9,274 nucleotides of DNA from a virus (Duplodnaviria; Heunggongvirae; Uroviricota; Caudoviricetes), in the IMG/VR virus record IMGVR_UViG_2703719355_000015, positions 1 to 9,274 of that record; one strand, 5' to 3'. Below are positions 9,001 to 9,274 of the stretch, piece by piece. The first letter of the stretch is position 1, and each line of letters begins with the position of its first letter. The position numbers are program-made.

Positions 9001-9274
9001 CACCATTGCATCATTTCTCTGCGCTTATCGAGATACTGAGCATGGTTGTAAATTCAGCTACCCCAGTGTGTTGACAAAAAATTAGCGCAAGAAGACAAAA
9101 AATCACCTTGCGCTAATGCTCTGTTACAGGTCACTAATACTATCTAAGTAGTTGATTCATAGTGACTGGATATGTTGTGTTTTGTCGCATTTTGTAGTCT
9201 GTTATTTAACCGTAAATACTTATAAACATATGATTTTTAAATAATTTATATGATTTTGTCATCCTTTAGGTGAA

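Follow-up and report, generated by a model that had tools for sequence, protein, structure and literature searches.

The attP P arm and sib element of coliphage HK022 are known from X51962 and from Yagil et al. 1989 as cited in PMC6814406. This phage integrates at an attB in the torS-torT intergenic region, a site occupied by a prophage in about 5% of E. coli (PMC6814406). The prophages at this site, surveyed in the same work, rewire torS expression and TMAO respiration from the attL side; lysogens of HK022 drive torS from the attL side and show no change in torT transcription (PMC6814406). In the lambda family, the roles of P1 and H1, of P2, the X sites and H2, and of the B'–P2 bridge have been worked out (PMC4880445), as has the retroregulation of lambda int by sib, in which RNase III cleavage leads to int mRNA decay (PMC5300877). 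Among P22-like phages, Escherichia phage Gally (OV696608) uses the torS-torT site, excises and lysogenises (PMC9928086). The attP of P22 itself lies between gtrA and int.

The window analyzed here is a 9,274-nt stretch of a tailed-phage record (IMGVR_UViG_2703719355_000015). It has the traits of a P22-like carrier: a Head_binding tailspike, a P22_AR_N antirepressor, an injectosome protein and sar RNA. The sar antisense RNA was found on the minus strand at 4878–4945 (Rfam RF00262, 84.6 bits, E 3.7e-17), directly upstream of the P22_AR_N antirepressor gene at 4947–5807, and the two together are a P22-type immI region. Genes for the tailspike and for an O-antigen-type acyltransferase precede the att arm. 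The acyltransferase ORF (7797–8906, 369 aa) matches Pfam Acyl_transf_3 with E 5.5e-26. The region after it is non-coding, in agreement with an earlier sequence-only reading of this DNA, which had the window become non-coding after the conversion gene.

A sensitive blastn search of window 8900–9274 against phage records matched 144 records. Positions 9071–9274 are 88.7% identical to the annotated sib and attP of HK022 (E 2e-67 in the database search, 2.7e-73 pairwise), and 9066–9247 are 86.4% identical to lambda. Window 9072–9203 is nearly identical to both phages, and from about 9204 on it tracks HK022 rather than lambda. In an alignment of ten phages and prophages no indels were present from P1 to the crossover region, and P1, H1, P2 and X1 were invariant or nearly so. 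The fixed spacing between arm sites and strand exchange that marks a lambda-family P arm was also present, with P1 starting at −142 from the overlap centre in lambda (27589 vs 27731), HK022 (243 vs 385) and the window (9128 vs 9270). On this homology, 9074–9274 would with high confidence constitute sib/tI plus the "P–O" half of a lambda-family att site of HK022 specificity at the right end of a prophage, most likely attR with torT-side DNA next. The features are collected in Table 1.

Table 1. Features predicted by homology at the 3' end of the window (window coordinates)
Feature	Position	Strand	Sequence	Remark
Fossil int 3' end, IntS/Sf6-type	8970–9053	−		last 27 codons and stop; cut by an upstream in-frame stop
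sib/tI	9074–9124	−		exact map of HK022 "sib transcription processing site" 190–239
sib lower stem	9074–9079 / 9119–9124	−		6 bp; pairs the U-run; read-through RNA only
sib upper stem	9081–9092 / 9106–9117	−		U6 after it
P1 Int arm-type site	9128–9137	+	AGGTCACTAA	10-mer identical to lambda P1
IHF site H1	9145–9157	−	AATCAACTACTTA	exact match to WATCAANNNNTTR; between P1 and P2
P2 Int arm-type site	9159–9168	−	CAGTCACTAT	identical to lambda P2; invariant in 10 sequences
Putative Xis block X1, X1.5, X2	9171–9203	+		Fis site overlaps X2
X1	9171–9183	+	TATGTTGTGTTTT	13/13 bases as in aligned lambda
X2	9191–9203	+	TTTGTAGTCTGTT	12/13 bases as in aligned lambda; differing base common to Gally
Predicted IHF site H2	9223–9235	−	AATCATATGTTTA	one consensus mismatch; aligned with lambda TATCAATATATTA
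Second ATATGATTTT copy	9248–9257	+	ATATGATTTT	20 bp past the first; AT-rich spacer between H2 and core
Core-type Int half-site C	9260–9267	+	CATCCTTT	HK022 specificity; identical in HK022, Gally and mEp235
Overlap (strand-exchange) region O	9268–9274	+	AGGTGAA	7 bp; last base of the window = +4

The inverted pair of lambda-type Int arm sites that the sequence-only reading had picked out by consensus was borne out by alignment. The lambda misc_binding features "int 1" (27583–27602) and "int 2" (27615–27634) map onto window 9122–9141 and 9154–9173, the equivalents of the P1 and P2 footprints, and the annotated attP of HK022 begins at the base aligned with 9128. As judged from these correspondences, AGGTCACTAA and CAGTCACTAT can be taken as true lambda-type Int arm sites P1 and P2 in inverted orientation. 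H1 is the sole exact IHF consensus match in the window and is identical in lambda, 434 and HK022. The X1 and X2 direct repeats come after P2, as in the P arm of the lambda family; the names and limits of X1, X1.5 and X2 follow the established lambda literature (Landy; PMC4880445) and not a tool annotation.

HK022 has the same one-mismatch form of H2 as the window. The IHF motif with one mismatch occurs 15 times in the window against 15.4 expected, so that the H2 motif alone is not significant. The first copy of ATATGATTTT, at 9228–9237, overlaps predicted H2. Both copies of this direct repeat are exact, as had been claimed, but the pair is only partly conserved: the second copy is lineage-specific, being kept only in the HK022-type lineage (as ATGTGATTTT in Gally and ATGTTATTTT in HK022) and absent from lambda.

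The 3' end of the window reads ...GTCATCCTTTAGGTGAA. Its C half-site aligns with CAGCTTTT of lambda, inside the lambda "int 3" core footprint, and AGGTGAA matches the lambda overlap TTTATAC column for column. Together with the overlap, 9264–9267 make up the 11-bp attP/attB identity CTTTAGGTGAA (9264–9274). HK022 attP reads GTCATC-CTTTAGGTGAA-TAAGTTG and the E. coli K-12 attB, in the torS-torT intergenic region, reads GTGCA-CTTTAGGTGAA-AAAGGTTG. In the mEp235 record the 11 bases are annotated as "prophage attachment site (type HK022)", and that feature stops at the base corresponding to 9274 in the alignment. These matches place the predicted C half-site and the whole overlap inside the window, with HK022 integration specificity. 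The core had been expected beyond the window; instead the window closes with the C half-site and the overlap, and its 3' end coincides with that of CTTTAGGTGAA. Because it stops exactly where the attP/attB identity ends, the record appears to be a prophage trimmed at the att duplication.

The 11-bp perfect inverted repeat described earlier is real: ATTAGCGCAAG (9081–9091) is the exact reverse complement of 9107–9117. Nevertheless, it is not part of the Int-site architecture to which it had been assigned but belongs to the tI/sib hairpin, the HK022 sib (190–239) mapping to 9074–9124. The upper stem of 12 bp consists of this repeat and one G–U pair, and is followed by UUUUUU. Folding of the minus-strand RNA from 9135 to 9060 gave −27.5 kcal/mol with a z of −3.7, and 0 of 200 shuffles folded as well. 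A minus-strand terminator is annotated at the position of the window sib in the phage 434 record. The element is accordingly read as the intrinsic terminator tI for leftward, int-sense transcription, and its extended stem is a predicted RNase III substrate. The hairpin is almost invariant in 10 phages; since sib and the arm sites are nearly invariant among relatives, covariation gives no support for the RNA structure. A generic terminator scan of the window missed the sib hairpin because its loop limit of 3–8 nt excludes the sib loop. Rfam has no sib/tI family, and sar RNA was its sole match in the window. The A-run of the sib loop (9096–9102) is the sole indel in the entire sib-to-core alignment: it has five residues in lambda, HK022, 434 and ev099, six in the window, Gally, 611R6 and SI8, and seven in PhiR70_1.

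The sequence beyond the core can be read from near-identical prophages. Over window 8850–9274 the prophage of E. coli Z1323CEC0019 shows 99.5% identity, and its tailspike and acyltransferase genes are those of the window; STECUZB006 is 99.7% identical over window 8962–9274, within a lambdoid prophage. In both, attB B' comes next and torT begins 62 bp past the core. This speaks against the earlier expectation of int just past the window. The attR of the closest prophage continues from the window sequence into AAAGGTTGAGTCGC and torT. The far end of the Z1323CEC0019 prophage, the only one examined, lies about 42 kb away beside torS and holds attL, int and xis; its attL reads GTGCA-CTTAAGGTGAA-TAAGTTGTAT, then int, and the C', H' and P'1–3 elements were seen there. 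The window, which ends at overlap +4, contains no C', H', P'1–3, P' arm, int or xis. Probably int does not lie just beyond the window and would adjoin the core only in the excised circular form.

The Z1323CEC0019 integrase (357 aa) shares 96% identity with HK022 Int and 75% with lambda Int, and the Xis of this prophage is identical to lambda Xis at 71 of 72 residues. Int residues 1–44, within the arm-binding domain, are identical in Z1323CEC0019, HK022 and lambda, which fits the identical arm sites. In the stretches examined, the attL core of Z1323CEC0019 (7453–7463, CTTAAGGTGAA) and its attR core (6965–6975, CTTTAGGTGAA) have one difference, just left of the 7-bp overlap. Such a position would fit strand exchange within AGGTGAA together with polymorphism of the B half-site.

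Among phages and complete E. coli genomes no record covered at least 80% of the 9.3-kb window, which is thus a mosaic; coverage at a single place did not exceed 57%. An exact 65-mer scan of a viral contig collection gave no match. Window 5838–9274, with tailspike, acyltransferase and HK022-type end, was found together only in Z1323CEC0019, at 99.0% identity. The injection and immI genes further upstream resemble those of other P22-like prophages, and the window is accordingly considered strongly mosaic.

The mosaic includes a fossil integrase end just before sib. The fossil translates as IYNHAQYLDKRREMMQWWADWLDEKVE followed by a stop, matching the C-terminus of the IntS-type integrase of 611R6, and window 8977–9053 aligns with the 3' end of Sf6 int at 96% identity (E 4e-32). 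In a relative, PGAP annotates the fossil int as an incomplete pseudogene. In 434, Gally and many lambdoid torT prophages, too, this fossil end stands ahead of sib. Similarity of the window to IntS-type P22-like prophages stops at 9053–9055, and that to lambdoid torT prophages, 434 and Gally starts at 8962; lambda matches only from 9066 and HK022 only from 9071, both without the fossil before sib. Because IntS-type similarity ends at 9053–9055 and lambdoid torT similarity starts at 8962, this segment was read as a cassette-swap junction, and it is plausible that the shared 92 bp was the crossover zone for an exchange of integration cassettes. We further suggest, tentatively and with the balance somewhat against it, that the 92-bp segment 8962–9053 may act as a portable homology "linker" for integration-cassette exchange among P22-like phages, the window being the direct product of a swap from argW-IntS to torS/torT HK022-type.

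Two further observations concern this neighborhood. At 8954–8989, outside att, a terminator-like hairpin is formed by a 16-bp perfect inverted repeat (TTGATGAAAAGGTGGA/TCCACCTTTTCATCAA; 4-nt loop). It separates the stop codon of the acyltransferase gene (8906) from that of the fossil int and is likely a bidirectional terminator for formerly convergent genes. The IntS/argW-type P22-like phage vB_EcoP-611R6 (ON470589) contains, at 3001–3240 of the stretch examined, an HK022-type sib, P arm and core with 91% identity to those of the window, followed by GAAGGTGAACGG... and a tail-fibre gene fragment. Since the sequence that follows is neither B' nor P', this copy is regarded as an orphan half att site. 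The 611R6 record also holds argW and yfdC host DNA.

Several other readings of the window end were weighed. Short consensus-like motifs may arise by chance in AT-rich non-coding DNA, and motif counts alone do not exceed shuffle expectation: the arm consensus MAGTCACTAT with at most one mismatch has 2 matches against 1.17 expected (63 of 200 shuffles equal this), the IHF consensus has 1 exact match against 0.77 expected, and promoter-like matches in a motif scan of the window were at background level. With motif counts at chance level, the significance of the arm sites rests on homology. That homology runs for about 200 bp, colinear with experimentally defined sites at E 2e-67 to 1e-121, and chance can be dismissed as an explanation. 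The sequence-only reading had taken the region for the attP arm of a P22-like (thrW) or Sf6-like (argW) prophage, with a tRNA-derived core beyond the window. Its position after tailspike and conversion genes is indeed that of P22, and it is indeed the att arm of a P22-like temperate phage, but of neither the P22 nor the Sf6 type. The proposed comparison with the att sites of P22 (thrW) and Sf6 (argW) was run, and the best E value against P22 was 0.54, that is, no att similarity; the sole similarity to Sf6 is the fossil int 3' end, and in Sf6 the attP core lies across int. The same reading had noted that no tRNA 3' end is visible, and a tRNA scan of the window likewise found none. With neither a tRNA nor a fragment of one present, and with a core that is torS-torT attB sequence, the expectation of a tRNA-derived core failed. 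We consider this type of site refuted by the torS-torT core identity, the absence of a tRNA and the lack of P22 similarity, and its residual probability is negligible.

The same HK022-type site might instead be in the attP state, the record having been linearised at the core, so that C', the P' arm and int come next on the circle. This would give TAAGTTGTATATTT and then int right after 9274. In Gally, attP is indeed found with int beginning about 75 bp past the core, and several phage records in prophage order end at or near the core (mEp506, mEp235 PV340540 and PhiR70_1). Nevertheless, the window stops precisely where the 11-bp attP/attB identity does, as a trimmed prophage would, and both of the 99.5–99.7% identical sequences are attR junctions beside torT. 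The attP state is therefore considered unlikely; the DNA elements and the mechanism would be the same either way. It would be less likely still for the P arm and core to be a dead half-site, a fossil left by rearrangement. There is a precedent in 611R6, which now has an IntS/argW module and whose 91% identical P arm and core lead into neither B' nor P', and the window does hold another fossil in the int 3' end at 8970–9053. All the named protein sites are nevertheless intact, with P1, H1, P2 and X1 identical to lambda, and the nearest relatives have complete attR junctions, in one case together with matching attL, int and xis at the far end. A prophage right end in the attR state remains the most likely reading.

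The steps of a mechanism have been shown for lambda and HK022 and are transferred to this attR-type end by homology. In the circular phage, leftward int transcription would cross attP. Transcripts from pI would end at the tI hairpin (9081–9117 and U-run) and be stable, while antiterminated pL transcripts would pass tI and form the longer sib stem (9074–9124); RNase III would then cleave sib, and int mRNA would decay from its 3' end (retroregulation). For integration, IHF is predicted to bend the arm at H1 (9145–9157) and H2 (about 9223–9235), with an Int subunit bridging P1 to a core site. Strand exchange would occur within AGGTGAA (9268–9274) with the identical torS-torT sequence. Integration would part sib and the P arm, in attR, from int and the P' arm, in attL. 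With sib separated from int, retroregulation would be relieved and an induced prophage could make Int from pL. For excision, Xis at X1/X1.5/X2 (9171–9203), Fis, and IHF at H2 are predicted to bend the arm, which would let Int bridge P2 (9159–9168) to the B' core site.

Whether the P arm alters torT expression in a lysogen was also considered, and such an effect was rejected on the published finding that torT transcription is unchanged (PMC6814406); no host-regulatory role was therefore assigned to the arm. Because torS-torT prophages rewire torS expression and TMAO respiration, a lysogen of the phage represented by the window is expected to show that phenotype.

The window end is an ordinary, already described prophage end, an HK022-type P arm with sib, as follows from its stopping exactly at the crossover core. 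The current understanding of site-specific recombination in the lambda family is unchallenged by it. Its value lies in annotation: the right boundary of the prophage is fixed to the base (9274 = +4 of the overlap), the integration specificity is given as torS-torT, HK022-type, and HK022-type int and xis are predicted at the other end of the element.

As regards known systems, P22 and Sf6/HK620 resemble the window in carrier phage type, and P22 also in map position, after tailspike and O-antigen conversion genes. Their att sequences are unrelated to that of the window, however, and their cores are tRNA-derived (thrW in P22, argW in Sf6/HK620); in Sf6 the attP core is on the 5' side of int. Lambda shares identical P1, H1, P2 and X1, X2 at 12 of 13 bases, the P1–overlap distance of −142, and the sib hairpin with its U-run. 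It differs in the overlap (TTTATAC vs AGGTGAA), in the C site (CAGCTTTT vs CATCCTTT), in a diverged H2-to-core spacer and in its attB, which is gal-bio rather than torS-torT.

HK022 agrees with the window in the order and spacing of sib, P1, H1, P2, X1, X2 and H2. Its C half-site and overlap are identical (CATCCTTTAGGTGAA), and it has the 11-bp identity with the torS-torT attB. The two sequences diverge by about 11%, mostly between X2 and H2 (9204–9230), and the sib loop of the window is longer by one A. In the window sib is preceded by the 3' end of a fossil IntS-type int; this is not so in HK022, to which similarity begins at 9071. The carriers also differ: the window is P22-like, with podovirus late genes, immI and tailspike, whereas HK022 is an HK022/HK97-like siphovirus. 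The Lederbergvirus Gally is 89.9% identical over window 8962–9274 and, like the window, has a tailspike, the fossil int end, sib and an HK022-type attP. It differs in having another tailspike and no acyltransferase gene before att, and its record is in the attP form, with int and xis adjacent. The combination seen in the window, of a P22-like phage and an HK022-type integration module, is thus already known and published in the case of Gally.
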